64,000 nt of DNA from an uncultured Desulfobacterales bacterium (GCA_964647905.1 CAZYJR010000002.1:7198-71197), one strand, 5' to 3'. Positions 39,628 to 64,000 are shown, counted from the stretch's first letter. A program made the numbers and translations. The notes: generated by a model from the letters alone, not told the origin.

Positions 39628-39642
39628 ACCCTTTTTCTCCTT

Positions 39643-41555: not shown

Positions 41556-41664
41556 TCTCCCACCGCGGAATTTCAAGCCGAACAGGGTTGCCCGCAACCC
41601 GGCATCCTGATATGGATCATTATCATAGGTCTCTTCACCCGGATCCCGGCCAGGAGGATCGCTA

Positions 41665-42222
41665 TTGAACCCGGCCCGCCCCCCGCAAGACCGTGTTTCC
41701 TATTACTTCAAGCCCCCGCGTGAAATCGACTCCCCCACCCTGGAGGCAGTCCGGGACCTGGTGGAGGCCGGCGGGGCGGTGGGTACATCCTGGACCGAGG
41801 AAAACCTCAGGGGGGCTGTACTGGTCGCATACGCCGCCCGCGAAGGCCGGGTGGTGGGCTGTACCATACTCAAGCGACCCAAAGAAGACTATAGAAAAAA
41901 GATAGAGGCGGCAACCGGCCTTGACCTCTCCGGTTACCTGGAGCGGGGCTACACAGCGGTCTCGGAGGAGTTCCGGGGACGCGGCATAGCGGACGCCCTT
42001 ATCAGAGGCCTGATCCGGCGCTCCTCGGAATACAGCGTCTATGTCACCATCCGGATGGACAACGGGCCCGCCCTCAGGCTCACCGAGAAGAACGGCATGC
42101 AGCCGGCGGCCCGCTTCCGCAACCCCCGCACGGGCCGCTTGCTGGGGCTTTTCGTCAACCGCCGGCCTCCTCCTCTCCCTGCTTCTTCTGGTAGTCCTGG
42201 ACGCGGTGGTGGAGCTTTCTGA
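41665..42222 (+). CDS. GNAT-like N-acetyltransferase (putative)
   Basis: RGRGIADALIRGLI matches GNAT motif A (R/Q-x-x-G-x-G/A). TTG start. The last 68 nt overlap the convergent 1079-aa gene, so the true C-terminus is uncertain. Confidence 0.55.
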   Translation: MNPARPPQDRVSYYFKPPREIDSPTLEAVRDLVEAGGAVGTSWTEENLRGAVLVAYAAREGRVVGCTILKRPKEDYRKKIEAATGLDLSGYLERGYTAVSEEFRGRGIADALIRGLIRRSSEYSVYVTIRMDNGPALRLTEKNGMQPAARFRNPRTGRLLGLFVNRRPPPLPASSGSPGRGGGAF

Positions 42223-45681: not shown

Positions 45682-45726
45682 CAAGGGCTCCGTATGTTCC
45701 AATTAACCAAGAGAGGAGGAAGAAAC

Positions 45727-46548: not shown

Positions 46549-46570
46549 GCGGGGGAGATCTTTCGACTCC

Positions 46571-47485: not shown

Positions 47486-47503
47486 CAATCGGGCCGTGAG
47501 ACA

Positions 47504-48427: not shown

Positions 48428-48463
48428 GAAAAAAAGACTCACGGGAGGTTCGTTTTTCATACC

Positions 48464-49231
48464 ATGGATCAAGCTGTCTCGGCAAAGATCGTGACCAAGG
48501 ACCTGAACTTCTATTACCGGGACTTTAGGGCTCTTCAAGGAATCTCTCTGGAGTTTCAGGCCGAAGGGGTTACCGCGCTCATCGGCCCTTCGGGTTGCGG
48601 CAAGAGCACCCTGCTGAGATGCCTCAACCGGATGAACGACCTCATCCCCGGAACACGCGTAGGCGGGGAAGTGATTTATGCGGGGCGGGACATATACGAT
48701 CCTGCTGTTGACGTGGTCACACTCAGGCGCCGTATCGGCATGGTCTTCCAAAAGCCCAACCCCTTTCCCAAGACAGTATTCGACAACATCGCCTACGGCT
48801 TGCGGGTCAACGGGATCAGGGACCGGGGAAAAATCGAGGAACAGGTGGAAACCAGCCTCAGGAGGGCCGCCCTTTGGGACGAGGTCAAGGACCGCCTGAG
48901 GCAGTCGGCCTTGGGCCTTTCCGGAGGGCAGCAGCAGAGGCTCTGCATCGCAAGGGCCTTGGCCGTGGAACCGGACGTCCTGCTTATGGACGAGCCGGCC
49001 TCAGCCCTGGACCCGATAGCCACCCAGAAGATAGAGGAGTTGATCCACGAACTCAAAGACTCCTACACCATCATTATCGTAACCCACAACATGCAGCAGG
49101 CCGCCCGAGTCTCGGACATCACAGCCTTTCTCTACATGGGCCGGCTGATAGAGGTGGGGCCCACGGACACCCTCTTCACCCGGCCGCATTTGAAGCAGAC
49201 ATCCGATTACATAACAGGCAGGTTCGGGTAG
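48464..49231 (+). CDS. pstB: phosphate ABC transporter ATP-binding protein
   Basis: GPSGCGKST Walker [26 protein letters not shown], and a PstB-specific C-terminus ...YITGRFG. Confidence 0.95.
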
Positions 49232-49256
49232 AAGTGGGCGATGAGAGGAAAAGCGT

Positions 49257-49940
49257 ATGCCCAAGCACTTGGTAAAGGCCCTCCAACGATTGAAGATCCG
49301 GATATTATCTCTGGGGGGTATGGTGGAAGAGAGGGTCAGGATGGCCAACCGGGCCATGGCGCTCCGCGACACTCCCCTTGCAGAGAGGGTCATATCCACC
49401 GACTATGAGATAGACGACCTGGAGGTGGAAGTCGAGGAGGAGTGCCTCAAGATAATCGCCCTGCATCAGCCGGTGGCCGGCGACCTGCGATTCCTCACCG
49501 CGGTCATCAAGATCAACAACGACCTGGAACGGATCGGAGACGAGGCTGTCAACATAGCAAGATGCGTTAGAATAATCGGCCGGCAGGAACCGGTGGCCTT
49601 TCCGGTGGACTTCGCCCCCATGGCCGAAAAGACCCAGTCCATGCTCAAGATGAGCCTGGACGCGCTGGTCAACATGGACCTGGATACGGCCTTCAAAGTC
49701 CTCACCCTGGACGACGAGGTGGACGTCATATACAGCAGGATCTACGACAAGGGCAAAGAGGCGATCCGCGGCGAGCCGGAGCGGGTGGAATACTTGATAA
49801 ACCTGCTCCTGATTTCCCGTTACCTGGAGAGGATCGCGGACCACGCCACTAACATCGCCGAGGAAGTGATCTACATGGTGGAGGGAGAAATCATACGACA
49901 CGGCAGGTGGGACCACCAGGACCCCGGGACCAGGTCCTAG
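49257..49940 (+). CDS. phoU: phosphate signalling regulator PhoU
   Basis: Duplicated PhoU repeat with two E(R)IGD(E/H)A motifs (DLERIGDEAVNIA and YLERIADHATNIA). Confidence 0.9.
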   Translation: MPKHLVKALQRLKIRILSLGGMVEERVRMANRAMALRDTPLAERVISTDYEIDDLEVEVEEECLKIIALHQPVAGDLRFLTAVIKINNDLERIGDEAVNIARCVRIIGRQEPVAFPVDFAPMAEKTQSMLKMSLDALVNMDLDTAFKVLTLDDEVDVIYSRIYDKGKEAIRGEPERVEYLINLLLISRYLERIADHATNIAEEVIYMVEGEIIRHGRWDHQDPGTRS

Positions 49941-50015: not shown

Positions 50016-51131
50016 TCATGGATGCGCGCCGGCTTGGTTCGGGCTGTAGGGCTCGCGCCACCCGACCAGGAGGTCGGCCACCACCACGCACTCCAGCCCG
50101 AAGGGTAGGTATCCCGCATAGCCTAAGAGCGGCATCTCGAAGAGCTGGAATCCATGGACGTAGGGGATGGAATATATCCATTTCGGATAACTGTAGATAT
50201 TCCACATCTCCCAAAAAAACCCGCATACAAGGGCGGCGCTCGATGCGGTGACGATTTCCCGCCAATCCCCATTGGTCACCGGTGACAAGATATGGGGCCT
50301 GGACGCCGCGCCGTCCAGTGCGACCAGTATGATCAGTGGAGAGACCCACAGCAGGGGATAGGTGTAATTGGGCCATACCCCAATGGCGGCCAGGCCCGCA
50401 CCCGCCACGATCAGGCAGAACCACGAGAGGGCCCTTGGTGCGGGCGCCCTGATGGCGATGAAATCCTTAAATCCTCTCTCAGGCAATGAAAAGGTCTCTA
50501 TTAGGGCCTTGGTACCCAGTACCGCCGGCAGCACGGTGGAGAAGGGCAGAGTGGCGGACCAGAAGTAGGACCATGAATCCAGGTCGCTGCCTGCGTAATA
50601 CCAGTTCTGCACAAAGCGGTTGAGGTACTCGAAAAACCACCAGAAAGCGGCGCTTGACGGGAAGAGCAGAAGATAGGACCGGGTGCGGTCCGTCAGGGGG
50701 CTCCTGCCGCTCCTCCTAAAGGCCAGGGCGTTGACCACCAGTATGTATCCCACCCAGAGCGGCGTAAATGTCCAGCCTTGGAGCCACGCCAGAGAAAGGG
50801 TGTCGCTCCAGGCGAACACCCAGGAGACGGCGGCGAGGGCGGCCCCTGCCCATCCCCACCACGGAAGCGAACGCCTCGGCGGCAAGGAGCCGGAGTCCCG
50901 CAGCCGCATGCTTTTCAAGGCCCTGACCAGCAAGGGCCCGAGAACCAAGGCCAGGAAGAGCCCCAGGGCGGCGAATACGCCCCAGGAGAAGGGCTCGTGT
51001 TCGACGTAGCGCGTCCGCGGAGGGAACTCCAGGTAAAGATCCAAAGGCCTCCCGCTCGCCACTATCCCGGCCGCAGGCAGGCCCACGAGCATGACCACCG
51101 TGACAGGCAACCTTACCCAATGCCGTCCCAT
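50016..51131 (-). CDS. hypothetical polytopic membrane protein
   Basis: 371 aa with ~9-10 hydrophobic segments, Trp/Tyr-rich loops (FWWFFEYLNRFVQNWYY, FWEMWNIYSYPKWIY). Family not recognised. Confidence 0.6.
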   Translation of the reverse strand: MGRHWVRLPVTVVMLVGLPAAGIVASGRPLDLYLEFPPRTRYVEHEPFSWGVFAALGLFLALVLGPLLVRALKSMRLRDSGSLPPRRSLPWWGWAGAALAAVSWVFAWSDTLSLAWLQGWTFTPLWVGYILVVNALAFRRSGRSPLTDRTRSYLLLFPSSAAFWWFFEYLNRFVQNWYYAGSDLDSWSYFWSATLPFSTVLPAVLGTKALIETFSLPERGFKDFIAIRAPAPRALSWFCLIVAGAGLAAIGVWPNYTYPLLWVSPLIILVALDGAASRPHILSPVTNGDWREIVTASSAALVCGFFWEMWNIYSYPKWIYSIPYVHGFQLFEMPLLGYAGYLPFGLECVVVADLLVGWREPYSPNQAGAHP

Positions 51132-51485: not shown

Positions 51486-51758
51486 CTAGAACCCCCTGCC
51501 GGCCGGATGATGACCTGCCCTTTCCTTGGCCCGCCGCCCGGCACGCATCACTGCTGCTACGAAGACCGATAACACCAAGGTGATGATCAAGCCCCCGACC
51601 AGGATCGGCATCCAGTATCCATCCGAATCCCTGCTCCGGATTCCCACCCCCATGCTCAAGACACCGACAAAGACCGCATAGGCAGCCAGCAAAAGGGCTG
51701 TCAGAATCGCAACAACCCTCGCAGCCCTTTTGGGGGCGGACGGTTCGCGGTCTATCAT
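51486..51758 (-). CDS. small two-TM membrane protein
   Basis: 90 aa with two clear hydrophobic helices. The ATG overlaps the dnaA stop (ATGA). Confidence 0.45.
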   Translation of the reverse strand: MIDREPSAPKRAARVVAILTALLLAAYAVFVGVLSMGVGIRSRDSDGYWMPILVGGLIITLVLSVFVAAVMRAGRRAKERAGHHPAGRGF

Positions 51759-53107
51759 TTCTTCCCTTCCTCGATCCTCTGGCTGAGGAATTCCACCTGC
51801 TTGCGAACGCTGCGGTCAACCCTCATCCTGCTGGCGATCACCTCTGCCGCGTAAAGCACGGTGGAATGCTTCCGGTTGATCGAGCTCCCGATCTCCTCCA
51901 GGGTGGCGTCGGTGTGCTGGCGGCAAAGGTAGGCGTAAACATTCCGTGGATAAGCATAGATCTTCTTCCTGGAACGCGATGACAGGAGATCCGACTCCAC
52001 ATTGAAATAGCGGCATAGAAGCGTCTTGATTTCCTCCAGGCTGGTGGTGCCTGAATCGCTCACGTGGCACTTGATCACCTCCATTACCAAGTCCTTGGAA
52101 ATCTTCTCGTGCAGCAGCTCGGTCTTGGCCTTGAGGCAGGTCAAGGCGCTTTCGATTTGTCGCACGTCTTGACAAAGGTGCTTTGCCAGCAGATTCGTCG
52201 CCTCTTCTGATAGATGGATTTCCTGCTCGGCGGCCTTTCTCTGGAGTATCTTGAGCCTGGTCTCGTAGTCCGGCGGATTCATCCGTGTTATGATCCCGCT
52301 GGTCAGCCTCGATTCGATCCCCTTGCGCATGTGGGGGATGTCCTTGGGGAGGAGAGAGCTGGTGAAGATTATCTTCTTCCGGTCATTTGCCAGCGCATCC
52401 AGGGTATACTCCAGCTCCCGCTGCGTCTTCTCCTTGCCGCTCAGGAAATGGACCTCTTCCAGGAGCAATACGTCGCACGCCCGTCGGTACTTGCCCTTGA
52501 ACTCCTCAATACTGTTGTTCTTGAGGGCGAAGATCATCTCGTTGACAAAGTCCTCGGCCGTAATGTAGCAGACGCGGGAATTGGGATTCCGACTCAGTAT
52601 TGCATGGCCTATGGCCTGGGTTAGATGGCTCTTGCCGAGACCGGTGTTGGCCAGCATGAGGAGCGGGGTGTAGAGCATCTCCGAGCCCGAGGCCACGGAC
52701 TGGGAGACCGAATAGGCGAATTCGTTGCACTTGCCCACCACGAAACGATCGAACGTCAAGGCGTTGTTGAGCCACGAGCCGGTCATTACCCCCCGCCGCC
52801 TGCGCATGTTGGGGAAGGCTAGCTGTCTGGACTCCTGCTCGATGTCCGGCCCCAGATCCTTCCTTTCCTGCTGGCTCGCCCGAAAAACAAGATTAAAGGT
52901 CCTGCCTCCCACCTCCTGGAGCTTGCCCTGCAGGAGGGACCCGTAGTTCTCCTGGACCCAGTTCTTGGAGAACTTGTTGGGGCACTCCAAGACCACGGTG
53001 TCGCCGTTGCTCTCCACCAGGGCCAGCGGCTTGATCCAGAGGGAGAACCCCTGCTCGGTTACCTCGGATCGAACTCGATTTTTGGCTTCTTCCCATAGGC
53101 TGTTCAT
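51755..53107 (-). CDS. dnaA: chromosomal replication initiator protein DnaA
   Basis: NALTFDRFVVGKCNEFA, Walker A GLGKSHL, LLLEEVHFLSGKEKTQ box, and a C-terminal DNA-binding HSTVLYAAEVI motif. The ATG at 53107 gives MNSLWEEAKNRV.... Confidence 0.95.
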   Translation of the reverse strand: MNSLWEEAKNRVRSEVTEQGFSLWIKPLALVESNGDTVVLECPNKFSKNWVQENYGSLLQGKLQEVGGRTFNLVFRASQQERKDLGPDIEQESRQLAFPNMRRRRGVMTGSWLNNALTFDRFVVGKCNEFAYSVSQSVASGSEMLYTPLLMLANTGLGKSHLTQAIGHAILSRNPNSRVCYITAEDFVNEMIFALKNNSIEEFKGKYRRACDVLLLEEVHFLSGKEKTQRELEYTLDALANDRKKIIFTSSLLPKDIPHMRKGIESRLTSGIITRMNPPDYETRLKILQRKAAEQEIHLSEEATNLLAKHLCQDVRQIESALTCLKAKTELLHEKISKDLVMEVIKCHVSDSGTTSLEEIKTLLCRYFNVESDLLSSRSRKKIYAYPRNVYAYLCRQHTDATLEEIGSSINRKHSTVLYAAEVIASRMRVDRSVRKQVEFLSQRIEEGKK

Positions 53108-53756
53108 AGACAAACTCCAGCAAAAGAGGGGCGCTTCCGAGGGCCATAAGGAGCCCGCAAAGCTTGGTCGAGGTCGGTCTCCGGTCGACCCGCAGGAGCT
53201 GTTCAAAGACCTTAAGCAGCTCCGTAGGGTTTGCTCGCTCAGCTCGGATCCAGTGAAACCAGAAAATGGGCAGATTACGCTGATTTTCGGTGGAACAGGG
53301 TCTTGCCCGTCGATGTTTCGGGCCTATTATTCAAAAACCAGAGGGCCTGTCAAAGCTGATGGGAAGCGGGTTTCACTTACCCGCCGCCGAATTTTCAACA
53401 AAAAACAACCCGCTGAAATGACGACCTTATCGAGCCGGCCCACCATAACATGCGACTACGCAACGATATTCCAGGCCGTTCCCTTTTCCACCTGAATTCA
53501 AAAGCTTCATCGAGTTATCCCCCGCCGCCCGAAAAGATATTCACACCCCCAATTCTTTCGTTTTCTGGCTCTAGCTTCCAATTTCGGGCATTTTCAAGTT
53601 TTTCACCTGGGATTTCGGATCGCACCCCCCCGGCATGGGGGCCTGTATCCTCTTGCCTTCCCGGAATCCGCCGGGAACACCCCTCCCTTCATTGCCCCAA
53701 AAAAGAGTGAAACAGGCCTTAAAATGACTCAAAACTTCTTTTTAACGCCATCTTAA
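53108..53756. other. candidate oriC / dnaA promoter region (gene-free, 650 bp)
   Basis: No supportable ORF. AT-rich tracts occur at 53395..53420 and 53700..53756. Degenerate DnaA-box-like 9-mers, each 7/9 to TTATCCACA, are TTTTCCACC (53483), TTATCCCCC (53514) and ATATTCACA (53536). Confidence 0.4.
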
Positions 53757-54773
53757 TCAGCAGATACGAGGCAAAAGCTCCCCGGAAAGGGTTGAGAGGA
53801 CCCTTCGCCCCCCTACACTGGTTTCCATTGTGACTCTGGCTGGAGATCCGCTTTCGGTCACCTGGCCTATGACAGCCGCCTCCCTGCCCAGCGGGTGGGC
53901 CCGCATCTTGGCGAGAACCTTGCCCGCAGAGGCCCGGGGGACTACGGCCAGGCACTTGCCTTCATTGGCCACATAGAGGGGGTCCAGGCCCAGCATCTCG
54001 CAGGCAGAGGCCACCGCAGGGTGAACCGGGATTTCTTTCTCCTTGATGCGAACCCCGACCCCTGAACAAGACGCGATCTCGTTCAACGCAGTCGCAACAC
54101 CACCCCGCGTTGGGTCGCGAAGCACATGTACATCCACGCCGGGCTTCAGGAAGGAGGCCACCAGCCCGTTCAGCGGCGCAGTGTCGCTGACGACCTCCAC
54201 CTGGAAGTCGAGGCCTTCACGTTGGGCCAAGACGGCTATCCCGTGGTCACCCACCCCGCCGCTTAGTATTATCAGGTCGCCCGGCCTCGCATTGCCCGCA
54301 CCCACAGACACATCCCCCCGGATCCAGCCCACCCCGGAGGTGTTAATGAAGATCTTGTCGGCATGGCCCCGCGGAACCACCTTGGTATCTCCCGCCGCCA
54401 CCAGGACGCCGGCCTCTCCAGCGGCCCGCGCCACTCCGTCCAAGACGGTCTCCAGGTCGTGAAAAGAGAGCCCTTCCTCCAAGATCAGGGCCAGGGTCAG
54501 GAATGCGGGGTTTGCTCCCTGCATGGCCAAGTCGTTGACCGTCCCGTTTACAGCAAGCCTCCCTATATCGCCGCCCGGGAAGAAAATAGGGTCCACGACA
54601 TAGGAATCCGTGGTGATCGCCATTCGGCCCCGCCCGGAAGGGACCACTGCGCTGTCGTCGAGCGGGCGCAGAAACTCGTTTTCCAGCCGGCCCAGGATGA
54701 GTTCCTCCACCAGGGCCCTGGCGGCCCCGCCCCCTCCGCCGTGATCCAGCTCCACATATCTCGCCATTTCCAC
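53757..54773 (-). CDS. hypE: [NiFe]-hydrogenase maturation protein HypE
   Basis: AIR-synthase-like fold motifs (TTDSYVV.PIFFPGGDIG, GDTKVV) and the invariant C-terminal ...PRIC. Confidence 0.9.
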   Translation of the reverse strand: MEMARYVELDHGGGGGAARALVEELILGRLENEFLRPLDDSAVVPSGRGRMAITTDSYVVDPIFFPGGDIGRLAVNGTVNDLAMQGANPAFLTLALILEEGLSFHDLETVLDGVARAAGEAGVLVAAGDTKVVPRGHADKIFINTSGVGWIRGDVSVGAGNARPGDLIILSGGVGDHGIAVLAQREGLDFQVEVVSDTAPLNGLVASFLKPGVDVHVLRDPTRGGVATALNEIASCSGVGVRIKEKEIPVHPAVASACEMLGLDPLYVANEGKCLAVVPRASAGKVLAKMRAHPLGREAAVIGQVTESGSPARVTMETSVGGRRVLSTLSGELLPRIC

Positions 54774-54845
54774 CCCCCCTCGGCTTTTAGCCTTTCCAAA
54801 GCCCGCCTGTTGTGCTATCCCATTCGACGTTGCCTGCTGAGTTCA

Positions 54846-54861
54846 TGTTTCACGTGAAACA
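54846..54861. promoter_or_regulatory. parS: parS centromere site
   Basis: TGTTTCACGTGAAACA is a perfect match to the 16-bp palindromic parS consensus. It lies 25 bp upstream of the parA ATG. Confidence 0.85.
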
Positions 54862-54885
54862 TCTCTGTCAAGGCCCTTGGAGTCC

Positions 54886-55680
54886 ATGGCTGAAATAGTA
54901 TCCATTTCCAATCAGAAGGGGGGCGTAGGCAAGACGACCTCCGCCCTCAACCTCGCCGCGTCCCTCGCCGCTGCGGAAAAGGCCTGCCTGGTGGTCGACT
55001 GCGACCCCCAGGGCAACGCGACCACCGGCCTCGGCCTGGACCCCAAGGAGCTTCCGGCCGGGCTCTACGACCTCCTCCTGGCGGCCACCCCTGCCGAGAG
55101 GGCCGTCATCGACACCAATCTCCCCGGTCTTTCCCTTATAGGCGCCGATCCCAACCTCATCGGAGCAGAGGTGGAGATCGCCGGCAGCCCCGACCGCGAG
55201 TTCAGGTTGAGGGCCGCCCTACTGCCGCTCAAAGAGCGCTTCGATTTCATATTCCTGGACTGCCCCCCCTCGCTCGGATTTCTCACGCTTAACGCGCTAA
55301 CCGCAGCCGACTCCCTCCTTGTGCCCCTCCAGTGCGAGTACTACGCCCTGGAGGGGCTGAGCAAGCTTATGGAGACCCTCCATGCGGTCAGGCGAGGCCT
55401 CAACCCGGCCATAGGCCTCACAGGCATACTCCTTACCATGTACGACGCGCGAAACAACCTCTCCATACAGGTGGAGCAGGAAGTCAGGGATCACTTCAAG
55501 GAAATGGTCTTTCAGGTGGTCATCCCCAGGAACGTCAGGCTGAGCGAGGCCCCCAGCCACGGGCTGCCGGTCCTCCTCTACGACATCAGGTCCAAGGGGG
55601 CCCAGAGCTACCTCGCCCTGGCCCGCGAGTTCATAAGCCGTGGAGTCCGACCAAATGCCCAAGCGAAAAGCCCTAGGTAA
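54886..55680 (+). CDS. parA: chromosome partitioning ATPase ParA/Soj
   Basis: Deviant Walker A NQKGGVGKTT, DCDPQGNAT and FIFLDCPPSLG. Confidence 0.9.
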   Translation: MAEIVSISNQKGGVGKTTSALNLAASLAAAEKACLVVDCDPQGNATTGLGLDPKELPAGLYDLLLAATPAERAVIDTNLPGLSLIGADPNLIGAEVEIAGSPDREFRLRAALLPLKERFDFIFLDCPPSLGFLTLNALTAADSLLVPLQCEYYALEGLSKLMETLHAVRRGLNPAIGLTGILLTMYDARNNLSIQVEQEVRDHFKEMVFQVVIPRNVRLSEAPSHGLPVLLYDIRSKGAQSYLALAREFISRGVRPNAQAKSPR

Positions 55681-56494
55681 AGGCCTCTCCGCCCTCATCC
55701 CCGAGGCGGGGGGGGCGGATGAAAAGCACCCGGCCTTCTTCCAATGCCCGGTACACGCCATAGAACCCAACCCCAATCAGCCCAGGAGGACCTTCGAGCA
55801 TTCGGACTTCCAGGAACTCGTAGACTCGGTCAGGGAAAAGGGGGTCGTGACGCCCCTCCTGGTCAGCAGGACCGAAGGCGGATACCGCCTCATAGCCGGC
55901 GAAAGGCGCTGGAGGGCCGCCCAAAAGGCGGGGCTGCACACCGTACCGGTCGTGGTCCGCGAGGGCTCGGAGGCGGAGGCGCTGGAGCTCGCCCTGATCG
56001 AAAACATCCATAGGAGGGACCTGAACCCCATCGAAGAGGCTCTGGCCTATCGCCGGTGCATCGAGGAGGCCGGCCTGACCCAGGAGGCCCTGGCCCACCG
56101 CCTGGGACGGGACCGCACCACCATCACCAACATGCTTCGCCTCTTGGCCCTGCCCCGCTCCATCCAGGAAGACCTCCTCGAGGAGCGGCTCACCATGGGA
56201 CACGCGCGGGTATTGGCGGGACTCAAGAGCGCGGAAGACCACACCGCTCTCAGGGACCGAATACTCCGCAAAGGCCTGTCGGTCCGCCAGGCCGAAGCAG
56301 AGGCCCGCAAGCTCTTCCGCAGCGCCGCCTCCACTCCGCATGCCCCGGACCCGCACTTGCAGTCCCTGAGCGAGGACCTCAAGCGCTCCCTGGGGACCAA
56401 GGTGGAGATATCCCGCCGAGGCCGCCGGGGCCGGATAACGATTCACTTCCACTCGGACGAGGAACTGGAACGCCTCCTGGATCGACTGACCTAA
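55655..56494 (+). CDS. parB: chromosome partitioning protein ParB/Spo0J
   Basis: KRKALGKGLSALI N-terminus, ParB box GERRWRAA, and HTH QEALAHRLGRDRTTITNMLRLL. It overlaps the parA 3' end by 26 nt. Confidence 0.9.
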   Translation: MPKRKALGKGLSALIPEAGGADEKHPAFFQCPVHAIEPNPNQPRRTFEHSDFQELVDSVREKGVVTPLLVSRTEGGYRLIAGERRWRAAQKAGLHTVPVVVREGSEAEALELALIENIHRRDLNPIEEALAYRRCIEEAGLTQEALAHRLGRDRTTITNMLRLLALPRSIQEDLLEERLTMGHARVLAGLKSAEDHTALRDRILRKGLSVRQAEAEARKLFRSAASTPHAPDPHLQSLSEDLKRSLGTKVEISRRGRRGRITIHFHSDEELERLLDRLT

Positions 56495-57093
56495 TCCCTC
56501 CCCCCACGGCGGAACCGGGGCTCCTCCCCTCTCACGAGCCTGCCAATGTTTCCGCGGTGCCTGAGGACAACGAGGCCGGCCACTCCCAGCGCCGCAACCA
56601 CGGTCCACCAAGCATAGCCCGTGCAAGCCAAAAAAACCGGCATGGAACACGCGGCGACCATGGATCCCAACGACACATACCTCGTCAACCGGGCAGCCGC
56701 CAGGAAGACCAAGACCGCCAGAAGGCTGGCAATGGGTGCGAGCGCTGCGAACATCCCCAGAGCGGTCGCCACGCCCTTGCCCCCATTGAACCGCAGGAAT
56801 ACGGAAAACTGATGCCCGACCACAGCAGCAACACCCGCGGCCTCTGGGAGCCCGCTTGCCTCTGGAAAGGCGGCTCTTGACGCCGCCACGGGCAGCACCC
56901 CTTTCATCGCATCCAGCAGGAGGGTCACCACACCCCACCCCGCACCCACTTGGCGGGCCACATTGGTCGCACCTATATTCCCGCTACCCCCTTCCCGCAC
57001 GTCAACCCGCGCGACACCCTGTCCGATCAGCCGACCGAACGGCACTCCGCCCACAAGATAAGAAAGGACTATCAATAGGCCCCAAACAGCCAT
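56491..57093 (-). CDS. plsY: glycerol-3-phosphate acyltransferase PlsY
   Basis: YLVGGVPFGRLI...REGGSGNIGATN...GHQFSVFLRFNGGKGVAT. The ATG at 57093 gives 200 aa. The track ORF carries 147 spurious N-terminal codons. Confidence 0.9.
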   Translation of the reverse strand: MAVWGLLIVLSYLVGGVPFGRLIGQGVARVDVREGGSGNIGATNVARQVGAGWGVVTLLLDAMKGVLPVAASRAAFPEASGLPEAAGVAAVVGHQFSVFLRFNGGKGVATALGMFAALAPIASLLAVLVFLAAARLTRYVSLGSMVAACSMPVFLACTGYAWWTVVAALGVAGLVVLRHRGNIGRLVRGEEPRFRRGGRD

Positions 57094-57340: not shown

Positions 57341-57838
57341 TTACATATAGAAGTACTTCTTCCAGAACTCGGGGTCTTCCTTGTCCTTCCAGTAGTCTCC
57401 GAACTTTTGCTCGAAGAAATCCTCCAAACGTTCGAACCACCTTTTCCGCTTCTCGGCCTTTCCAGCTGCCTCCTCCAGCACATCCAGCAGAAAAGTCCCG
57501 ATCTCGGAAATCTTGTCCTTGGGCACATACGCATGAGCCCCGGACCGGATGGACTTTACGAAATTGTCAGCGCTCAGGGCATGAGCGGTCAACATCAGCG
57601 TTGGGATCCCTCGCTTGGCCGTCTCCTCCAGGAGGTCATAACCCCTGACACCCATGATATCCAGGATAGCGGCATCATACTCCTTGCTCTCCAAGAACTT
57701 CTTGGCTCCCTCGTAATCCGACGCCTTGTCCAACTCGCACATGTCCAGGAGATCTTCCAACGACCCAAGGATATCCGGCTCGTCGTCCACGATCAGTACC
57801 CTCTTCCCTCGAAGCAGCTCTTCTCTCTCACCGGTCAT
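57341..57838 (-). CDS. response regulator receiver protein with a short C-terminal extension
   Basis: KRVLIVDDEPDILGSL...AAILDIMGVRGYDLL...TLMLTAH...YVPK. GGAGGAG RBS before the ATG at 57838. Confidence 0.8.
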   Translation of the reverse strand: MTGEREELLRGKRVLIVDDEPDILGSLEDLLDMCELDKASDYEGAKKFLESKEYDAAILDIMGVRGYDLLEETAKRGIPTLMLTAHALSADNFVKSIRSGAHAYVPKDKISEIGTFLLDVLEEAAGKAEKRKRWFERLEDFFEQKFGDYWKDKEDPEFWKKYFYM

Positions 57839-57971
57839 AACTCTCTCCTCCCACTGGAGCGCACACCCGCCCGCAACCCGACTCAGGCGCCCCGGTAACG
57901 GTGGTAATTGAAAACGGCCGCCTACCGCCTCTTGCCGCCGATCCCTCATTTTAACGCCTACCGAGGATTTT

Positions 57972-59270
57972 TCAACCGGAAGGGCCTTTTTTCTCTCTAT
58001 TATTCTTGAACGGCGAAGCGGTGCCATGACCGTCCCAAATCAACCGCTTGGGATCCCGCCGGTCCTTGAGGGAGAGTGCCCCTTCCGGGCACACCCCCAC
58101 ACAGAACCCGCAACTCCAGCAGAGCCCTGGATCCGCCACAACCCTGCCGAATTCCTCATCCACCCGAAGCGCGCCGTAAACGCACACCCTGGTGCAGGCC
58201 CCGCAACCCGAGCAGCTTTCCGGATCAGCTGCCGGCAAATACGGCCCCTCCGGGGGCAGGGCATAGGGGAACGCTTCCCTTGCAGCCAGGGTCCCGGCGT
58301 CGCACACCAATGGCAGAACCTTGCCCATGAACTCATCCGGAGCCCTGTAACCCCGGACCTCCATCCACTCCTCGAGGCCTGAATTAATCCGTTCGAAAAG
58401 CCCGGGCCCCTCGAAATACAGCCCGGAGCCCACCCCGACCAGGCGGCAGCCGGCGAGCAGATACTGGAGCACATCGCTATGCCCGGAAACGCCCCCCACC
58501 CCTATGACCGGTAAGCTGGAAGCCCTCAGGAGGCGCACCGCCCTGGCAAGCGAAAAGGGCAGAAAAGCCCGGCCCATGGCGTACCCCCCTATGGCGGGCG
58601 CGCCAAAGGGCTCCTCGGCCTCGACGTCGATCACCAAACCCCCGGGTGCATTGTGGGCCGTTATAAAGTCGGCCCCGCTCCTCTCCAGGCATTGAGCGGC
58701 CTCCTCCAGGGGCTCGAGCATAGGTCCGATCTTCACCCCTATGGGCACCCTCTGCGCGCTTGACTTCACCGCCTCCAGTATCCGCCCCGCCACGGTGAAG
58801 TCAGCCTCAAAGACCCGACCCACATGCGGGCATGAAAAGTTCAATTCCAAGAGACAGGCCCCGGAATCAGCCATGGCTCGAGCGGTCTCGCGCCACCCCG
58901 AGAGATCCGAGGGCTCCTCGAAAAAGCTCGCCACCAGCCCCACCGAATACCTTTGGCAGATCTCTGACATTTTGGAGACCCGGCGGCACCAGGGACCGAT
59001 GGGCTCGACGTGAGGGGCGGCGAGCGAATAAAGGCACTTTCCTTCCCGGAAGCCCTTCCCCAGCCCTCCCAGCGGAAACTGGTACGGCCGCACGCGCACC
59101 TTGTACTCCGGTTTGGACGTGAACGTCTTGGTCACCACACCGCCGGCACCGGCCACACACAATCCTTCAACCGCCGCAGGCACGGCCCCCCATTCAGACG
59201 ACGAGGCCACCACCGGGCTCCTGAACCGAATCCCGGCAAGGTGGACCCCCAAATGCCCCTCGGTATCCAT
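57972..59270 (-). CDS. dihydroorotate/dihydropyrimidine dehydrogenase-family flavoprotein with C-terminal 2x[4Fe-4S] ferredoxin domain (PreA-like)
   Basis: LELNFSCPHV (active-site Cys loop), VIGVGGVSGHSDVLQYLLAGCRLVGVGSG (FMN-binding tail), then CSGCGACTRVC and CWSCGFCVGVCP. The start is either ATG at 59270 or GTG at 59291. Confidence 0.8.
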   Translation of the reverse strand: MDTEGHLGVHLAGIRFRSPVVASSSEWGAVPAAVEGLCVAGAGGVVTKTFTSKPEYKVRVRPYQFPLGGLGKGFREGKCLYSLAAPHVEPIGPWCRRVSKMSEICQRYSVGLVASFFEEPSDLSGWRETARAMADSGACLLELNFSCPHVGRVFEADFTVAGRILEAVKSSAQRVPIGVKIGPMLEPLEEAAQCLERSGADFITAHNAPGGLVIDVEAEEPFGAPAIGGYAMGRAFLPFSLARAVRLLRASSLPVIGVGGVSGHSDVLQYLLAGCRLVGVGSGLYFEGPGLFERINSGLEEWMEVRGYRAPDEFMGKVLPLVCDAGTLAAREAFPYALPPEGPYLPAADPESCSGCGACTRVCVYGALRVDEEFGRVVADPGLCWSCGFCVGVCPEGALSLKDRRDPKRLIWDGHGTASPFKNNREKKGPSG

Positions 59271-59298
59271 GGTTCTCTCCGAAACCCCCACAGCCGCC

Positions 59299-60672
59299 TT
59301 AGCGCCCGGAGTTTCTTGTCTCTATGAATTTGGTCTTTTTCTTCTCCCGGGGTAGTGTCCCGGCCGGGACCCATTCTATCTTCGGCGCTACACGCAGCTC
59401 GCGCCGGAAGAGATCCATGATTCTCTCTTCCAGCCCATTGAGCTCCTGCTCCGCCGTCCCCGCACCGTACTCCACCTTCAGCCCGAGGGGCGGGGGGACC
59501 ACCGGGCCCGGTCCATCCAGGACGACCCTGAAGTGACCGGTCACCTCGGGCCTGAACTTGAAGAGGGCCTCTTGAATGGCGGTGGGATACACATTCACCC
59601 CCTTTACGATCAGCATGTCGTCGGCCCTGCCCACGATGCGGAATGTCATTCCCGGCATGCCGCACGGGCAGGGTTTTGTGGAGACCTCCAGTATGTCCCC
59701 CAGCGCATAGCGCATGAACGGCCCCCCTTCCCAGTCGAGAAACGTAAACACCATCTCTCCCCTGGCGCCTTGCCGCAGCTCCACCGGCTCCTTGTTCTCA
59801 GGGTCCACCAGCTCCAGCAAGCAGTGATCCTCGCTCACGAAATGCATCCCGCTGTACTGCTCCGGAGGCTCATCGCATGATATACCGTGGAAGGCATGCC
59901 CTCCCCCGGTGTGATCGAAGACCTTGGCCCCGAAGCCTTGGGCCAATAGGGTCCTGACCTCAGGGTTCCCGCCTCCCGGCTCCCCCGCGCAGAAGAACCA
60001 CCTGAGCCCCAGGTCCCGGGCCTCCTTGCCGGTGAGCTCCCTGCTCCTCTCCAGAAGATACAGTCCGAAGGAGGGGGTGGCGATTATGGCGTCAGGAGCG
60101 GTCAGGCGGATGAAATCCAAGACCCTCTGGGTGCCCCCTTCTATCCCCACCGGGACCACACAGGCTCCCATGTGCTGTATGCCTTGGGACAGAGGAAGCC
60201 CGCCGGTGAACATGCTCAGGGAGAGGGCCTGTATCATCACGTGACCGGGCCGGATCCCGGCGCGCCAGTACTTGCGTGCGTGCATCTCATTGACCACGCC
60301 CACATCGTGCTTGGTCAAGGTGTAGAGTGTCGGTGTTCCGGTGGTACCCGAGGTGGAATTGATACGCACCAATTTGTCCCTGGGCGCGCAGGCCAGCAGG
60401 GAGTAGGGGTCTCCGTAGCGTTCAAGGGATTCCTCCTGGGCCCTGCGGTGCTCGTCCTTGGTCATCAAGGGGAGCCCGGCGAAATCAGCGAAGCTCCGGA
60501 TGTCTCCCGGCTCCGCCCCCGCGGTCCGGAACTTGGCCCGATGGAATTCGGAATGCTCGTAGTTGTACGCCACCTGCTTCTTCAGCTTCTCCCACTGGAG
60601 AGCCCTCATCTCCTCCCTGGACAGGGTCTCTATGAACTCGTTCCAGAGGCGTCTATCCCCTTGGTGCTTCAT
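59299..60672 (-). CDS. phenylacetate-CoA ligase (PaaK)/coenzyme F390 synthetase-family adenylating enzyme
   Basis: STSGTTGTPT AMP-binding P-loop variant, RADDMLIVKGVNVYP, N-terminal ...LQWEKLKKQV.... 457 aa. Confidence 0.85.
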   Translation of the reverse strand: MKHQGDRRLWNEFIETLSREEMRALQWEKLKKQVAYNYEHSEFHRAKFRTAGAEPGDIRSFADFAGLPLMTKDEHRRAQEESLERYGDPYSLLACAPRDKLVRINSTSGTTGTPTLYTLTKHDVGVVNEMHARKYWRAGIRPGHVMIQALSLSMFTGGLPLSQGIQHMGACVVPVGIEGGTQRVLDFIRLTAPDAIIATPSFGLYLLERSRELTGKEARDLGLRWFFCAGEPGGGNPEVRTLLAQGFGAKVFDHTGGGHAFHGISCDEPPEQYSGMHFVSEDHCLLELVDPENKEPVELRQGARGEMVFTFLDWEGGPFMRYALGDILEVSTKPCPCGMPGMTFRIVGRADDMLIVKGVNVYPTAIQEALFKFRPEVTGHFRVVLDGPGPVVPPPLGLKVEYGAGTAEQELNGLEERIMDLFRRELRVAPKIEWVPAGTLPREKKKTKFIETRNSGR

Positions 60673-60689
60673 CAGCTCTTCTCTCCTTC

Positions 60690-61118
60690 TCAGCCCTGAT
60701 CAACGGAACCATCCTTGCCCGGGCCCTCACAAAGCTCCAGCAGGAGCCCCTCAGTGGTCCACGGGTCGAGGAAGGCCACTCTCCCATGGCTCCCGGGCCT
60801 GGGAAACCCTTCCATGACCTTGCAGCCCTCTCGGGAAAGCCCTGCGACGGCCTCCTCAATGGCGGGGACCTCCATGGCAATATGGTTGTATCCTTCGGCC
60901 CCTCCCATGACATCTCTTCCCAAGCTAGGCTCCTCGGACAGGTACTGGATAAGCTCGACGGTCACGTTGGCCGCCTCCAAGCGGGCCACCCTGAGCCCCA
61001 CCTCGGGCATCTCCTTTATCCCTCCGGACCGGAACCCGAACCCGCCCTCCAGGAGCCTCAGGTTACGCTCCAGGTCCCGGACGATCACCCCCACGTGCTC
61101 CACCCTGGGCCTTCTCAT
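60690..61118 (-). CDS. VOC/glyoxalase-fold protein (methylmalonyl-CoA epimerase-like)
   Basis: VEHVGVIVRDLERNLRLL...YNHIAMEV...VAFLDP...GLLLELCE carries the paired metal-binding H/E pattern. The ATG shares a base with the hyuB stop (TGATG). The track ORF has a 137-codon spurious extension. Confidence 0.75.
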   Translation of the reverse strand: MRRPRVEHVGVIVRDLERNLRLLEGGFGFRSGGIKEMPEVGLRVARLEAANVTVELIQYLSEEPSLGRDVMGGAEGYNHIAMEVPAIEEAVAGLSREGCKVMEGFPRPGSHGRVAFLDPWTTEGLLLELCEGPGKDGSVDQG

Positions 61119-62860
61119 CACCGCCCCCTCCGTTTCCGCCGGGTGGCGTCCTGGTCCACCTCCAAGGTGGCCGGGTCGATTGCCACACCATAGTCCTCGC
61201 GCGCCGACCTCACTGAGACCACCTCGTTTCGGACGTCCTCCACCACCTTGGAGACCGGCCGCTCCAGCGGATCGCCGTAGCCACCGCCTCCGCCCGCTCG
61301 CTCGTTGAAAACGGTATGCTCGGGTATATCTCGGATTATTTCCTTGCTCTTTGCCGCTTGCACCCGGCCGTCGGGAAACCGAAGCTCCACCCGGTTCGCC
61401 GCCCCCTTTCCGCCCCCGAAAAACCCGAATGCCCGCGCATCTTCCTCGATCCCGTCCCCGAACGCGATGCCGGTTACGTTCTTGCCGTATATCTCGAACT
61501 CGGTCTCCACTCCCAGGCCACCCCGCCACCTGCCCGGGCCGGCGGAATCCTGCAAGTACTCGTGCTTGATCAAGAAATGAGGGTCCTGGATTTCGAACAT
61601 CTCGTAGTCCTGGGCCAGTATGCCTCCTGCGCAGTTGATCAGCCCGATGTGGTCATAACCGTCGGCCATCCATGTAGCCCCTGACCCCCCTTTGAGCGCC
61701 AGAAAGAGTATGTCCACGTATGAGCGGTCCTTGCGGGGATCCCACCCGGTGACCGTGAAGCCCAGGAAGCGGTTCCACCCTGCGGTGACCCTGCGGGGCA
61801 GGGCCGGGGCCATGGCCTTGAATATGGCGTCCGAGATGGGGCCGGTGATGCTGTTGCCAAAGGTGGTGGCCGCCGGATAGGCCGCGTTCAAGAATGAACC
61901 TTTTGGATTGACGATATGAACAGGCCTTAAAATTCCATCATTATGGGGAATATCAGGGTTTATATGCATCAGAAAAGTCAAAAGAACGGCAGAGGCGGTC
62001 GCTGCATAGGGAGCATTGACAAAGCCCTCGGTCTGAGGGGAGGATCCCGTGAAATCAAAGGTGATTTCATCGCCCTTGACCGTGACCTCGAGGTTGATCT
62101 TCATCTTGGAGCCTTCGCGGATTCCATCGTAGTAGACCCAGCTCTCTCCTTGATAGCTCCCGTCAGGGATCTGGCCGATCTCCCGTCTAACCATCTTCTC
62201 GGTGACATCAAACAGATACTCCACGTGGTCGTTGAACCGCTCCACCCCGTAACGATCCAGAAGGGCCGAAACGCCCCTCTCCCCCACGACGCATCCCCCG
62301 ATCTCCGCCTTGATGTCCTCCTCCACTATGTCATAGCGGATATTGGCGAATATCAGATCCCAGACGTCCCTGCGAAACCGCCCCTCCTCGTATATCTTGA
62401 CCGGAGTGATCCGCAGGGCCTCCTGCCAGACTTCCCTGGCCTCGGGGTTGTATCCCCCGGCCACCGCGCCCCCGATATCCGCCTGGTGTCCCTTGCACGC
62501 GGCCCATGCCACGAGCTCTCCCTGGTGGAACACGGGCTTGAATACGGCCACGTCCGCGTTCTGGTTGCCTCCGGTGAAGACGTCGTTGTGAAGGATCACA
62601 TCCCCCGGGCGGATGTCTTCGCCGAAGTACTCCACTATGTAGCGGCAGGCCGGCTGGATGGCGAAGGCCAGCACCGGGATGTACTCGGTCTGCTCCAGCA
62701 TCCGTCCGTTCTTGTCGTAGAGGCCGGTTACGAAATCCCTCGCCTCGTTCAGAATGGGGGACCTGGTGGTGCGAAGCAGCGTAAGACCCATTTCCTCGGT
62801 TATGGACTTGAAGCGCCGCTGGAGCACCGACGCCAAGATCGGGTCGATTTCCCTTTTCAT
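61118..62860 (-). CDS. hyuB: hydantoinase B/oxoprolinase family protein (HyuB)
   Basis: DPILASVLQRRFKSITEEMG, NDVFTGGNQNADV, and GGGGYGDPLERP near the C-terminus. 580 aa. Confidence 0.9.
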   Translation of the reverse strand: MKREIDPILASVLQRRFKSITEEMGLTLLRTTRSPILNEARDFVTGLYDKNGRMLEQTEYIPVLAFAIQPACRYIVEYFGEDIRPGDVILHNDVFTGGNQNADVAVFKPVFHQGELVAWAACKGHQADIGGAVAGGYNPEAREVWQEALRITPVKIYEEGRFRRDVWDLIFANIRYDIVEEDIKAEIGGCVVGERGVSALLDRYGVERFNDHVEYLFDVTEKMVRREIGQIPDGSYQGESWVYYDGIREGSKMKINLEVTVKGDEITFDFTGSSPQTEGFVNAPYAATASAVLLTFLMHINPDIPHNDGILRPVHIVNPKGSFLNAAYPAATTFGNSITGPISDAIFKAMAPALPRRVTAGWNRFLGFTVTGWDPRKDRSYVDILFLALKGGSGATWMADGYDHIGLINCAGGILAQDYEMFEIQDPHFLIKHEYLQDSAGPGRWRGGLGVETEFEIYGKNVTGIAFGDGIEEDARAFGFFGGGKGAANRVELRFPDGRVQAAKSKEIIRDIPEHTVFNERAGGGGGYGDPLERPVSKVVEDVRNEVVSVRSAREDYGVAIDPATLEVDQDATRRKRRGR

Positions 62861-62922
62861 TTGATCCTCCTCTGATCTTTCCGATACACCGCCATTGGTG
62901 CCATCCCCGTGTGGTCCGCCCC

Positions 62923-64000
62923 TCAGAGTGCGGCCATCAGGTAGCTCCCGTACTGATCGCAGGACACTGAGTAGCCCGGAGGAACGAGAATGGTGGTATT
63001 GATCTGTTCGATGACCGCCGGCCCTTCGAGCCTGTTGCCGTGCCCCATGCGATTGCCGTCATAGACCTTCACGTCCCTGTACCCGCGGTCCCGGGGTATG
63101 AACACCGGCCGGGTTCCCTTGAGGCACCCGGCCGGGTCCGCTCCCCGGTGAGGCTCCTCCCGAAACTCGGGCTTCTGGGTGATTCCAATGGCCGACATCC
63201 TTATATTGACAAGCTCCACCTGGGTGCCTTCCTCTCGGAGGTCATAGCCGTAGAGCCTATTGTGCTCCCGGTGGAAAGCCGCCCGTATCGCCTGGTCGTT
63301 GAATCCGTGAAGATCCTCGGCCTCCGCCTCCACGTTCACCTCGTGGTACTGGCCCACGTACCTCAGGTCCAGGCTGAACCTGAACCGCCTCTGCCCGGGT
63401 CCGATGCCTTCGGCCGAGAGCACTCCCTCACCCTCGGCCTCCAAGCCCCGGACAAGTTCCCGGAACCAGGGGACATCGATGACTTCCCTGTCGAAGGGGC
63501 AGTGGTAGCTCCTCACGAAATCGTGCTTGAGATCGGAAAGGAGCATGCCCGCGGCGCAGAATATGGAGGACTCCTTGGGGATCAGTATCCTGCTGATCTC
63601 CAGCTCGGCGGCTATCATGGCGGCGTGGATCGGTCCGGCACCCCCTGCGCAGACCAGCAGGAAGTCCCTGGGGTCATACCCCCGCTGGACCGATATCTCA
63701 CGGATCGCCGAGGCCATGTTTACATTCATGATGTGGTACATCCCGTGGGCCGCCTCCACCAAGTCCAGGCCCATTGGTACGGCCACCATCTCTTTCACCG
63801 CACACTCAGCGGCCTTCCTGTCGAGCTTCATTCGACCGCCTGCGAAGTACTCCTCGCTCAAGTAGCCCAGCACCAGGTTGGCGTCGCTGCACGTGGGCTC
63901 GGTCCCGCCGAGCCTGTAACAGGCCGGGCCGGGATAAGCACCGGCGCTCTTGGGACCCATCTTCAAGAGCCCGCCCTCGTCGATCCACGCAACGCTTCCG
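62923..64000 (-). CDS. hyuA: hydantoinase A/oxoprolinase family protein (HyuA), C-terminal ~358 codons; gene continues beyond the window end
   Basis: The reading frame is open to the window edge (...GSVAWIDEGGLLKMGPKSAGAYPGPACYRLGG...). FLLVCAGGAGPIHAAMIA is typical of HyuA. Confidence 0.85.
   Translation of the reverse strand, partial: GSVAWIDEGGLLKMGPKSAGAYPGPACYRLGGTEPTCSDANLVLGYLSEEYFAGGRMKLDRKAAECAVKEMVAVPMGLDLVEAAHGMYHIMNVNMASAIREISVQRGYDPRDFLLVCAGGAGPIHAAMIAAELEISRILIPKESSIFCAAGMLLSDLKHDFVRSYHCPFDREVIDVPWFRELVRGLEAEGEGVLSAEGIGPGQRRFRFSLDLRYVGQYHEVNVEAEAEDLHGFNDQAIRAAFHREHNRLYGYDLREEGTQVELVNIRMSAIGITQKPEFREEPHRGADPAGCLKGTRPVFIPRDRGYRDVKVYDGNRMGHGNRLEGPAVIEQINTTILVPPGYSVSCDQYGSYLMAAL

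Follow-up and report, generated by a model that had tools for sequence, protein, structure and literature searches.

A conserved operon of Desulfobacterota that may open cyclic amides with ATP and activate the products as CoA thioesters

We analysed a stretch of 64,000 nucleotides (the window) from an uncultured Desulfobacterales bacterium (GCA_964647905.1 CAZYJR010000002.1:7198-71197). Positions 57341 to 64000 carry six co-oriented genes on the minus strand, which are the distal part, the downstream two-thirds, of a ten-gene operon that is conserved in related sulfate reducers (Desulfobacterota). The ten genes encode a GntR/FCD regulator, the DctP, DctQ and DctM proteins of a tripartite ATP-independent periplasmic (TRAP) importer, the hydantoinase-family subunits HyuA and HyuB, a protein of the vicinal oxygen chelate (VOC) superfamily, a PaaK-family ligase, a PreA-like flavoprotein and a response-regulator receiver. 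In our best reading, which we judge to have about an even chance of being correct, the operon imports an organic acid that bears a cyclic amide, spends ATP on opening its ring and passes the product on as a CoA thioester.

Results

Gene content and junctions

Genes were called by listing and translating the open reading frames (ORFs), and the proteins of the window were then scanned against Pfam and NCBIfam. A preliminary description, made from the sequence alone, had reported six tightly packed minus-strand genes, and all six of its family assignments held. The hyuA gene runs from beyond position 64000 to 62923, and the window holds only the C-terminal 358 codons of this ATP-binding alpha subunit (Hydantoinase_A and Hydant_A_C). 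It is followed by hyuB (61118-62860), which encodes the beta subunit with the hydrolytic metal site (580 amino acids; Hydantoinase_B, 500 bits), and by the gene for the VOC protein (60690-61118; 142 amino acids; Glyoxalase_4, 55 bits). The PaaK-family acyl/aryl-CoA ligase (59299-60672; 457 amino acids) has AMP-binding and AMP-binding_C_2 domains. The PreA-like gene (57972-59270) encodes 432 amino acids, or 439 from an alternative GTG start at 59291, with an FMN barrel resembling PreA and dihydropyrimidine dehydrogenase (DPD) and two C-terminal [4Fe-4S] clusters (DHO_dh and Fer4). The last gene (57341-57838) encodes a stand-alone receiver of 165 amino acids (Response_reg, 45 bits), whose tail of about 50 residues has no Pfam match. 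Its ATG at 57838 is preceded by GGAGG, and a longer ORF reaching 58027 is probably unused.

As read from the sequence, 62 nucleotides separate hyuA from hyuB, 17 separate the VOC gene from the ligase gene, 7 or 28, depending on the start codon, separate the ligase gene from the PreA-like gene, and 133 separate the latter from the receiver gene. The hyuB stop and the VOC start overlap in TGATG and share exactly one base, 61118, as had been noted before; through this junction the VOC gene is translationally coupled to hyuB. Eight promoter-like sites were found against 3.5 expected, and they do not coincide with the operon boundaries. Sites resembling terminators occurred no more often than in shuffled sequence.

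The operon beyond the window

An exact-sequence match of HyuB identified a contig, L001, on which the same genes are present and identical. The preliminary description had seen a six-gene string and had suggested extending it upstream of position 64000. On L001 this extension revealed the N-terminal half of HyuA, which is 691 amino acids in full (L001 7863-9938), and, further upstream, DctM, DctQ, DctP and the GntR/FCD regulator, so that the string grew to ten genes with a regulator and an importer past the window end. Beyond the GntR gene lie genes for a glycosyltransferase, LytB/UbiA and Dus, and downstream of the receiver lie those for PlsY, ParB/ParA, an AIR-synthase-like protein and DnaA. 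With unrelated housekeeping genes on both flanks, the ten-gene unit is a discrete insert among such genes, close to the replication origin and only about 5 kb away from dnaA.

Conservation of the linkage

A profile scan for the PreA-like protein in one genome per species gave 80 loci, which were then searched by tblastn with eleven proteins of L001; further loci were added by exact-sequence look-ups. We found the gene set again in at least 12 independent loci of Desulfobacterota (L003, L004, L005, L006, L012, L013, L015, L017, L024, L086, L087 and L090). The set GntR-DctPQM-HyuA-HyuB-VOC-ligase-(receiver)-PreA-like was found in L003, L004, L006 and L090, which are Desulfobacterales or Desulfobacteraceae metagenome-assembled genomes (MAGs) or metagenome contigs, with protein identities of 52-87%. 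The receiver is limited to the closest relatives L003, L004 and L090, where its orthologue (67-68% identity) sits between the ligase and PreA-like genes. In L005 the PreA-like gene is on the divergent strand, L015 has the order PreA-like-DctPQM-VOC-ligase-HyuB-HyuA, and L012, L017 and L024 encode a Liv-type ABC system (two ATPases, two permeases and a binding protein) instead of the TRAP importer. The PDB matches of this alternative binding protein were weak (at most 76 bits) and gave no clue to its ligand. Flanking genes vary between loci. Because the linkage was kept through rearrangement and transporter replacement, it is likely to be functional and not merely inherited synteny.

Some loci hold less than the full set. 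L087, from a Desulfobacula MAG, has GntR-DctPQM-HyuA-HyuB-VOC-ligase without an adjacent PreA-like gene; L086, from a Desulfomonilaceae MAG, has the same set and in the stretch shown also lacks the GntR gene; and in L083 the PreA-like gene stands alone. Outside the Desulfobacterota, HyuA-HyuB-VOC is kept in L094 and L097, with HyuB at 63-74% identity, and the VOC gene directly follows hyuB in L001, L086, L087, L090, L094 and L097. In L097 the VOC gene is followed by genes for a short-chain dehydrogenase/reductase and an acyl-CoA dehydrogenase, with adjoining genes for a family-III CoA-transferase, MmgE/PrpD, a MaoC hydratase, a second acyl-CoA dehydrogenase and a 3-hydroxyacyl-CoA dehydrogenase; these CoA-transferase and beta-oxidation genes occupy the place of the ligase. 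The invariant core is HyuA, HyuB and the VOC protein, CoA activation by a ligase or a transferase is the usual next step, and the PreA-like enzyme is a frequent accessory, linked to the core in roughly half of the loci that encode it.

Three loci depart from this pattern in other ways. The cluster of L013 (8406-13930; Thermodesulfobacteriota) adds an amidohydrolase resembling 5'-deoxyadenosine deaminase and TRZ/ATZ enzymes (360 bits) and a second, His-type HyuA/HyuB pair of 33% identity, and these extra genes may be a sign that a related substrate is an N-heterocycle with an amino or chloro substituent. In L093 (5596-15756; a Candidatus Tectomicrobia MAG), three small ORFs with no Pfam hits separate Gln-type HyuA and HyuB, and the flanks encode a cupin of the 3-hydroxyanthranilate dioxygenase (3-HAO) type and a fused oxoprolinase-like protein of 1286 amino acids. 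L085 (1-11272) carries a decayed copy of the cluster in which a 114-amino-acid C-terminal fragment of the ligase and a DctP remnant precede the PreA-like gene, with three transposase genes and a fragmented aldehyde dehydrogenase gene upstream.

HyuAB resembles a lactamase with an altered metal site

The part of HyuA in the window matched Hydantoinase_A (177 bits; PF01968) and Hydant_A_C (76 bits; PF19278), HyuB matched PF02538, and PF05378 was found on the full-length HyuA of L001. The ATP motifs DVGGTFTD, DMGGTS and GAYPGP are present in the L001 translation; the motifs of ASKHA-type alpha subunits are DxGGTxxD, DxGGT and GxxPGP (PMC8453981). Full-length HyuA scored 709 bits on the NCBIfam caprolactamase alpha model (cut-off 1000) versus 360 bits on that for the acetophenone carboxylase gamma subunit, and HyuB scored 450 bits on the caprolactamase beta model (cut-off 1000) versus 131 bits for acetophenone carboxylase. 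The cut-offs of the acetophenone carboxylase models, on which HyuAB reached 131-360 bits, are 1250-1500. The nearest structure to HyuB is the caprolactamase subunit CapB (6yra_B, 366 bits), ahead of N-methylhydantoinase (286 bits), acetophenone carboxylase (134 bits) and acetone carboxylase (70 bits). In the NCBIfam scans none of HyuA, HyuB, the VOC protein, the ligase and the PreA-like protein reached a curated equivalog cut-off, and between the GntR and receiver genes of L001 no gene for a third (gamma or epsilon) subunit was found. The higher caprolactamase scores, the CapAB-like subunit sizes, the missing third-subunit gene and the intact ATP motifs argue that HyuAB is a lactamase rather than a carboxylase; the carboxylase activity that had earlier been considered is disfavoured by the model scores, the subunit size and the lack of a third-subunit gene.

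The metal site of HyuB deviates from that of its relatives. The CapB ligands D41, H99, D102 and H124 align with D42, Q100, D103 and H125 of HyuB. In hydantoinases, oxoprolinases and carboxylases, His99, Asp102 and His124 have been called fully conserved, and Asp41 (Glu in acetone carboxylase) has also been called conserved (PMC8453981). Gln at the position of His99 was found in 12 of the 12 orthologous loci checked; the paralogue in L013 keeps His. The best 150 matches out of 1.84 billion representatives include 24 with Gln and 109 with His, and the Gln-type sequences are those nearest to this HyuB, with sisters at 41-53% identity. A profile search built from these sisters returned only members of this HyuB family, and no HyuB above 40% identity was found in the plasmid collection. 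By sequence, HyuB is thus placed in a separate Gln-type clade with an altered metal site, closest to caprolactamase.

The importer points to a carboxylate

The TRAP genes on L001, with that for DctP at 4926-5897, carry the DctP, DctQ and DctM Pfam families, and TIGR00786 was matched with 304 bits (cut-off 268). In the GxKxR motif of DctP (GQKIR) the Arg is invariant in 13 orthologues. We take this residue to be equivalent to Arg147 of SiaP, the carboxylate selectivity filter. The TRAP importer and the invariant Arg make an imported carboxylate the likely substrate. In a comparison of DctP with the PDB, the nearest solved TRAP binding protein was 4mnc (164 bits), which was reportedly crystallised with benzoylformate.

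The VOC protein and the CoA ligase

The VOC protein aligns end to end with methylmalonyl-CoA epimerases and scored 76 bits on TIGR03081 (cut-off 115); its nearest PDB entry, 3oa4, was deposited as a "glyoxalase". It has Val at the Glu that is mutated in the Streptomyces methylmalonyl-CoA epimerase structure 6xbr (Glu in 6wf6), and its orthologues have Val, Ile or Leu there. The residue altered in 6xbr would be a catalytic Glu. A His, a His and a Glu that we take to be metal ligands are kept. The family named in the preliminary description therefore stands, and with the low score and the Val for Glu the protein is probably not a true methylmalonyl-CoA epimerase, nor a classical two-base epimerase.

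The ligase scored 239 and 225 bits on the PaaK equivalogs (cut-offs 700 and 646). Its PDB matches were PaaK-type ligases (about 183 bits) and 2-hydroxyisobutyryl-CoA synthetase (172 bits). Because the two similarities are about equal, an aromatic substrate should not be assumed. No paa genes were found near the ligase on L001. The ligase family is highly conserved, with at least 68% identity in more than 100 clusters.

A PreA-like lineage that has no PreT

The PreA-like protein is 26% identical to E. coli PreA and scored 118.8 bits on the NCBIfam PreA model (cut-off 335). Its AlphaFold2 model has a pLDDT of 80.6, and the best Foldseek match was pig DPD (E 1e-20). All eight cluster Cys residues are kept, as is NFSCPH with the catalytic Cys. 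At the loop Asn of the canonical xN(M/I)E there is Tyr (Phe in some members), and NA replaces NT; the substrate-loop region was modelled at low confidence. These positions presumably correspond to N609, N736 and T737 of pig DPD. An insert of 10 amino acids is peculiar to the lineage, as is an extended C-terminus that closes with a conserved W...G.A.PF. In many members of the family, some of them linked to the cluster, the catalytic Cys is replaced by Ser. The use of Cys versus Ser as a cluster marker was dropped, as it does not track cluster linkage.

As a positive control, tblastn with E. coli PreT detected about 50 canonical loci (L023-L082) in which a PreT homologue lies immediately upstream of PreA. 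In the window and in the loci of the PreA-like family, the same search gave no PreT hit within 10 kb; the one exception was the outlier L019, with a hit 7 kb off. Because the canonical PreT-PreA loci were detected, the missing PreT is characteristic of the lineage and does not result from where the window ends, and the earlier remark that no PreT partner was in view extends to the whole lineage. The placing of the PreA-like protein in the same route fared less well: its linkage to the core is conserved in roughly half of its loci, and it is absent beside the core in L086, L087 and L097. The window also encodes a single-polypeptide pyruvate:ferredoxin oxidoreductase of 1196 amino acids (25556-29146, plus strand), a plausible source of reduced ferredoxin for a reductase of this kind.

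Other features of the window

The neighbourhood of the origin (51755-56938) comprises dnaA (51755-53206), the AIR-synthase-like gene, parA (54877-55680), parB and plsY. Adjoining dnaA, a 371-amino-acid ORF (50016-51131, minus strand) has no Pfam match at E <= 1e-5; the contig L002 carries the same ORF, likewise with no Pfam hit on record. The pstSCAB-phoU genes lie at 45694-49940. A gene at 42155-45394 (minus strand) encodes a fusion of 1079 amino acids, in which a TLC-type ATP/ADP transporter region is combined with HEAT repeats and, at the C-terminus, with a cyclic-nucleotide-binding domain. Nucleotide transporters of the TLC type are typically found in plastids and in bacteria with an obligate intracellular life, which makes the fusion unusual in the genome of a free-living member of the Desulfobacterota. 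On the minus strand at 32466-41597, ATP-grasp genes (RimK-like, 40662-41597; glutathione-synthetase-like, 39643-40665; a weak ATP-grasp match, 32466-33923) surround an Opp/Dpp-type peptide ABC transporter (33928-39627). This run may be a cluster for peptide or gamma-glutamyl metabolism and has no link to the Hyu operon.

Discussion

The sequences themselves establish which genes are present, their conserved linkage, the families of the proteins and the deviating residues. On this basis we propose the following scheme, in which we infer how the reactions are ordered, which way the redox step runs and what kind of substrate is used. The TRAP system, or the Liv-type ABC system in some relatives, would import a carboxylate bearing a cyclic amide (a lactam, imide or ureide). 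The alpha subunit of HyuAB would use ATP to phosphorylate the iminol tautomer and the beta subunit would hydrolyse the ring C-N bond, a step modelled on the precedents of caprolactamase, 5-oxoprolinase and N-methylhydantoinase. The VOC protein, co-translated with HyuB, may isomerise, epimerise or racemise the substrate or the ring-opened product through its metal site, and the ligase would turn the acid into a CoA thioester for beta-oxidation-type enzymes encoded elsewhere. Where it is present, the PreA-like protein could saturate, or introduce, a C=C bond in conjugation with the carbonyl of the ring, in the way that DPD acts on uracil. Its two [4Fe-4S] clusters would serve to trade electrons with ferredoxin or some other carrier instead of PreT. 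The preliminary description had likewise suggested ring opening followed by CoA activation; the CoA-transferase and beta-oxidation genes of L097 support this indirectly, and the order of the steps and the substrate are still proposals. The pairing of a PaaK-type ligase with a hydantoinase-like hydrolase has a precedent in the anaerobic indoleacetate (iaa) operon (PMC8360864, PMC8453981).

Several observations weigh against this scheme. No aminotransferase, deaminase or carbamoylase gene was found in the cluster on L001, and the cluster therefore offers no enzyme to dispose of the released amino or ureido group. The chemistry of HyuB may differ from that of known lactamases, because a metal-binding His is Gln. 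The VOC protein lacks the Glu that aligns with that of the epimerases, and its catalytic role is a prediction. The PreA-like gene can be missing beside the core or stand alone, which gives about half support to a role in the same pathway, and the direction of its redox step is left open by the Ser at the catalytic position of many members. The nitrogen gap would make sense if an aromatic ring retains the nitrogen, as when oxindole- or quinolone-type lactams give 2-aminophenyl acids, or if it is lost spontaneously from an enamine, as with pyridone-type rings. On this reasoning, and because the cluster has no nitrogen-disposal enzyme, carboxylates of N-heterocycles or aryl lactams are favoured as substrates. 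A more far-reaching reading, which we judge less likely than not, is that Desulfobacterota use the operon for an anaerobic pathway not yet described, with an N-heterocyclic or lactam carboxylate (such as a pyridone-, quinolone- or oxindole-type acid) as its substrate. Three lineages would then be new in mechanism: a Gln-type ATP-dependent lactamase whose metal site is altered, a co-translated VOC protein, and a DPD-like ene-reductase that works independently of PreT, is probably linked to ferredoxin and has a pocket for something other than pyrimidines.

A specific form of our scheme is a route for oxindole or indoleacetate resembling the iaa operon of Aromatoleum aromaticum. The substrate would be an indole-derived acid, for example 2-oxindole-3-acetate or some related aryl lactam. 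Ring opening by HyuAB would yield an acid with a 2-aminophenyl substituent, the ligase would form its CoA ester, the VOC protein would epimerise this ester, and the aromatic amine would be carried on to 2-aminobenzoyl-CoA. The Aromatoleum operon joins the ligase IaaB with the hydantoinase-like hydrolase IaaCE, sulfate reducers have been reported to possess iaa operons, and benzylmalonyl-CoA is a substrate of methylmalonyl-CoA epimerase (PMC8360864, PMC8453981). The SRPBCC and 3-HAO-type cupin genes near distant family members, and 4mnc as the nearest solved TRAP binding protein, fit such a route, which would also account for a cluster with no deaminase or aminotransferase. We nevertheless think this form unlikely, since the IaaGH B12 mutase, the IaaF benzylmalonyl-CoA dehydrogenase and the IaaL CoA-transferase, by which the iaa operon is defined, are absent from all loci with this gene set, and DctP is only distantly related (31 bits) to 4pgn/4pgp, a Desulfovibrio indole-acid binder. 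It is less likely again that HyuAB is an ATP-dependent ketone carboxylase, which would carboxylate a keto-acid beside its carbonyl, with the ligase activating the resulting beta-keto acid and the VOC protein handling the C2 stereocentre. Acetone and acetophenone carboxylases belong to the same Pfam families as HyuAB, and the altered metal site means that HyuB is not a standard lactamase. The pairing of a carboxylase with a following CoA ligase is established in ethylbenzene catabolism, where benzoylacetate-CoA ligase acts after acetophenone carboxylase. The latter enzyme has been described (PMC5214803). However, the scores of the subunits on the lactamase models are two to three times those on the carboxylase models, HyuB has 580 amino acids, like CapB, where the corresponding carboxylase subunits have 684-776, and no gamma- or epsilon-subunit gene is present.

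Two further readings are more doubtful. A variant of reductive pyrimidine or orotate catabolism, with the PreA-like protein reducing orotate or a uracil derivative and HyuAB replacing dihydropyrimidinase or dihydroorotase, would suit the DPD fold with its DHO_dh domain, the overlap of "hydantoinase" activities with dihydropyrimidinase chemistry, and a TRAP importer, which implies a carboxylate such as orotate. An orotate-binding TRAP protein exists (4nn3), but DctP matched it with only 43 bits. Moreover, the position of the pyrimidine-binding Asn is Tyr or Phe and NT has become NA, the PreA equivalog score of 119 bits lies far from the cut-off of 335, no ureidopropionase or carbamoylase gene is present, the ligase and the VOC protein would have no role, and the core is found without the PreA-like gene; we regard this variant as improbable. 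The least probable reading is an ordinary 5-oxoprolinase for pyroglutamate salvage that lies beside unrelated genes by accident. Two-component 5-oxoprolinases of the HyuAB type exist, pyroglutamate is an abundant carboxylate that would suit the TRAP importer, and a glutathione-synthetase-like gene lies about 20 kb off in the window. Yet the neighbours are kept across phyla, hyuB and the VOC gene are translationally coupled, and caprolactamase, the nearest characterised relative, has no 5-oxoprolinase activity (PMC8453981). The preliminary description had weighed orthology of HyuAB to 5-oxoprolinase with unconserved neighbours; we found instead that the neighbours are kept through rearrangements and that HyuB belongs to its separate Gln-type clade. 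The conserved and translationally coupled context excludes a plain 5-oxoprolinase as far as genomics can.

Individual substrates were considered and set aside for various reasons. Pyroglutamate would leave the neighbouring genes unexplained, and orotate, uracil and thymine are opposed by the altered pocket and the lack of a carbamoylase. Ectoine has no activatable C=C bond, and the known ectoine-binding TRAP proteins were not among the matches listed (60 PDB entries). The chemistry of 6-hydroxynicotinate is attractive, as its enamine would lose NH3 spontaneously, but no hydroxylase is present. Dihydroquinolinone and oxindole fit three of the enzymes, but they are not carboxylates.

Caprolactamase CapAB of Pseudomonas jessenii (6YRA) is the closest known system to HyuAB. 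Both have two subunits of similar size (696 and 581 amino acids in CapAB, 691 and 580 here), HyuB aligns with CapB over its full length, and the ATP motifs of the alpha subunit and three of the four metal ligands of the beta subunit are shared. However, the identity is only about 40%, the scores lie far below the equivalog cut-offs, CapB His99 is Gln in the whole clade, and the vicinal Cys-Cys of CapB is absent from HyuB. The context differs as well, with a TRAP importer, a coupled VOC protein and a CoA ligase here, in organisms that are anaerobes. The iaa operon resembles the present one in its PaaK-type ligase, its hydantoinase-like enzyme, its dedicated uptake dependent on a binding protein, and CoA-ester intermediates for which an epimerase is relevant (PMC8360864). 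Compared by gene content, it differs in having IaaGH, IaaF (a decarboxylating acyl-CoA dehydrogenase) and IaaL, none of which is found here, and as described (PMC8360864, PMC8453981) it has no PreA-like Fe-S flavoprotein. Acetophenone carboxylase with benzoylacetate-CoA ligase likewise couples an ATP-dependent enzyme of the Hyu family to CoA activation of the acid product, but the carboxylase has additional subunits and longer beta-type subunits, and the subunits here score much lower on its models.

The other components show the same mixture of likeness and difference. E. coli PreT-PreA and domains IV-V of mammalian DPD share with the PreA-like protein the FMN-binding TIM barrel, the two C-terminal [4Fe-4S] clusters and the Cys of NFSCP, whereas the present lineage lacks PreT, has Tyr or Phe for the substrate-loop Asn, and is only distantly similar in sequence. 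The VOC protein aligns over its full length with methylmalonyl-CoA epimerase but has a hydrophobic residue in all orthologues at the Glu mutated in 6xbr. The ligase has the domain architecture of PaaK but does not reach its equivalog cut-off and has no paa context.

No description of this cluster was found in a full-text literature search, just as the preliminary description had been unable to match it to a described pathway. The operon is not categorically new, because every component belongs to a known superfamily and the overall scheme of ring opening followed by CoA activation has precedents, and it challenges no established principle. Nevertheless, the literature searched describes neither the operon as a whole nor its Gln-type HyuB clade, its coupled VOC protein or the PreA-like lineage with no PreT. 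For HyuB and the PreA-like protein the chemistry cannot simply be transferred from their named relatives, and the annotations "N-methylhydantoinase B", "phenylacetate-CoA ligase" and "dihydropyrimidine dehydrogenase PreA" are probably wrong for these proteins.

Desulfobacterota oxidise a large share of the organic material in anoxic sediments. To our knowledge, little is established about the genes by which they degrade nitrogen heterocycles and lactams. The operon is compact, widespread in Desulfobacterota and apparently self-contained, and may therefore provide a tractable entry point to such catabolism. It presents a well-defined and testable problem in anaerobic carbon and nitrogen cycling.

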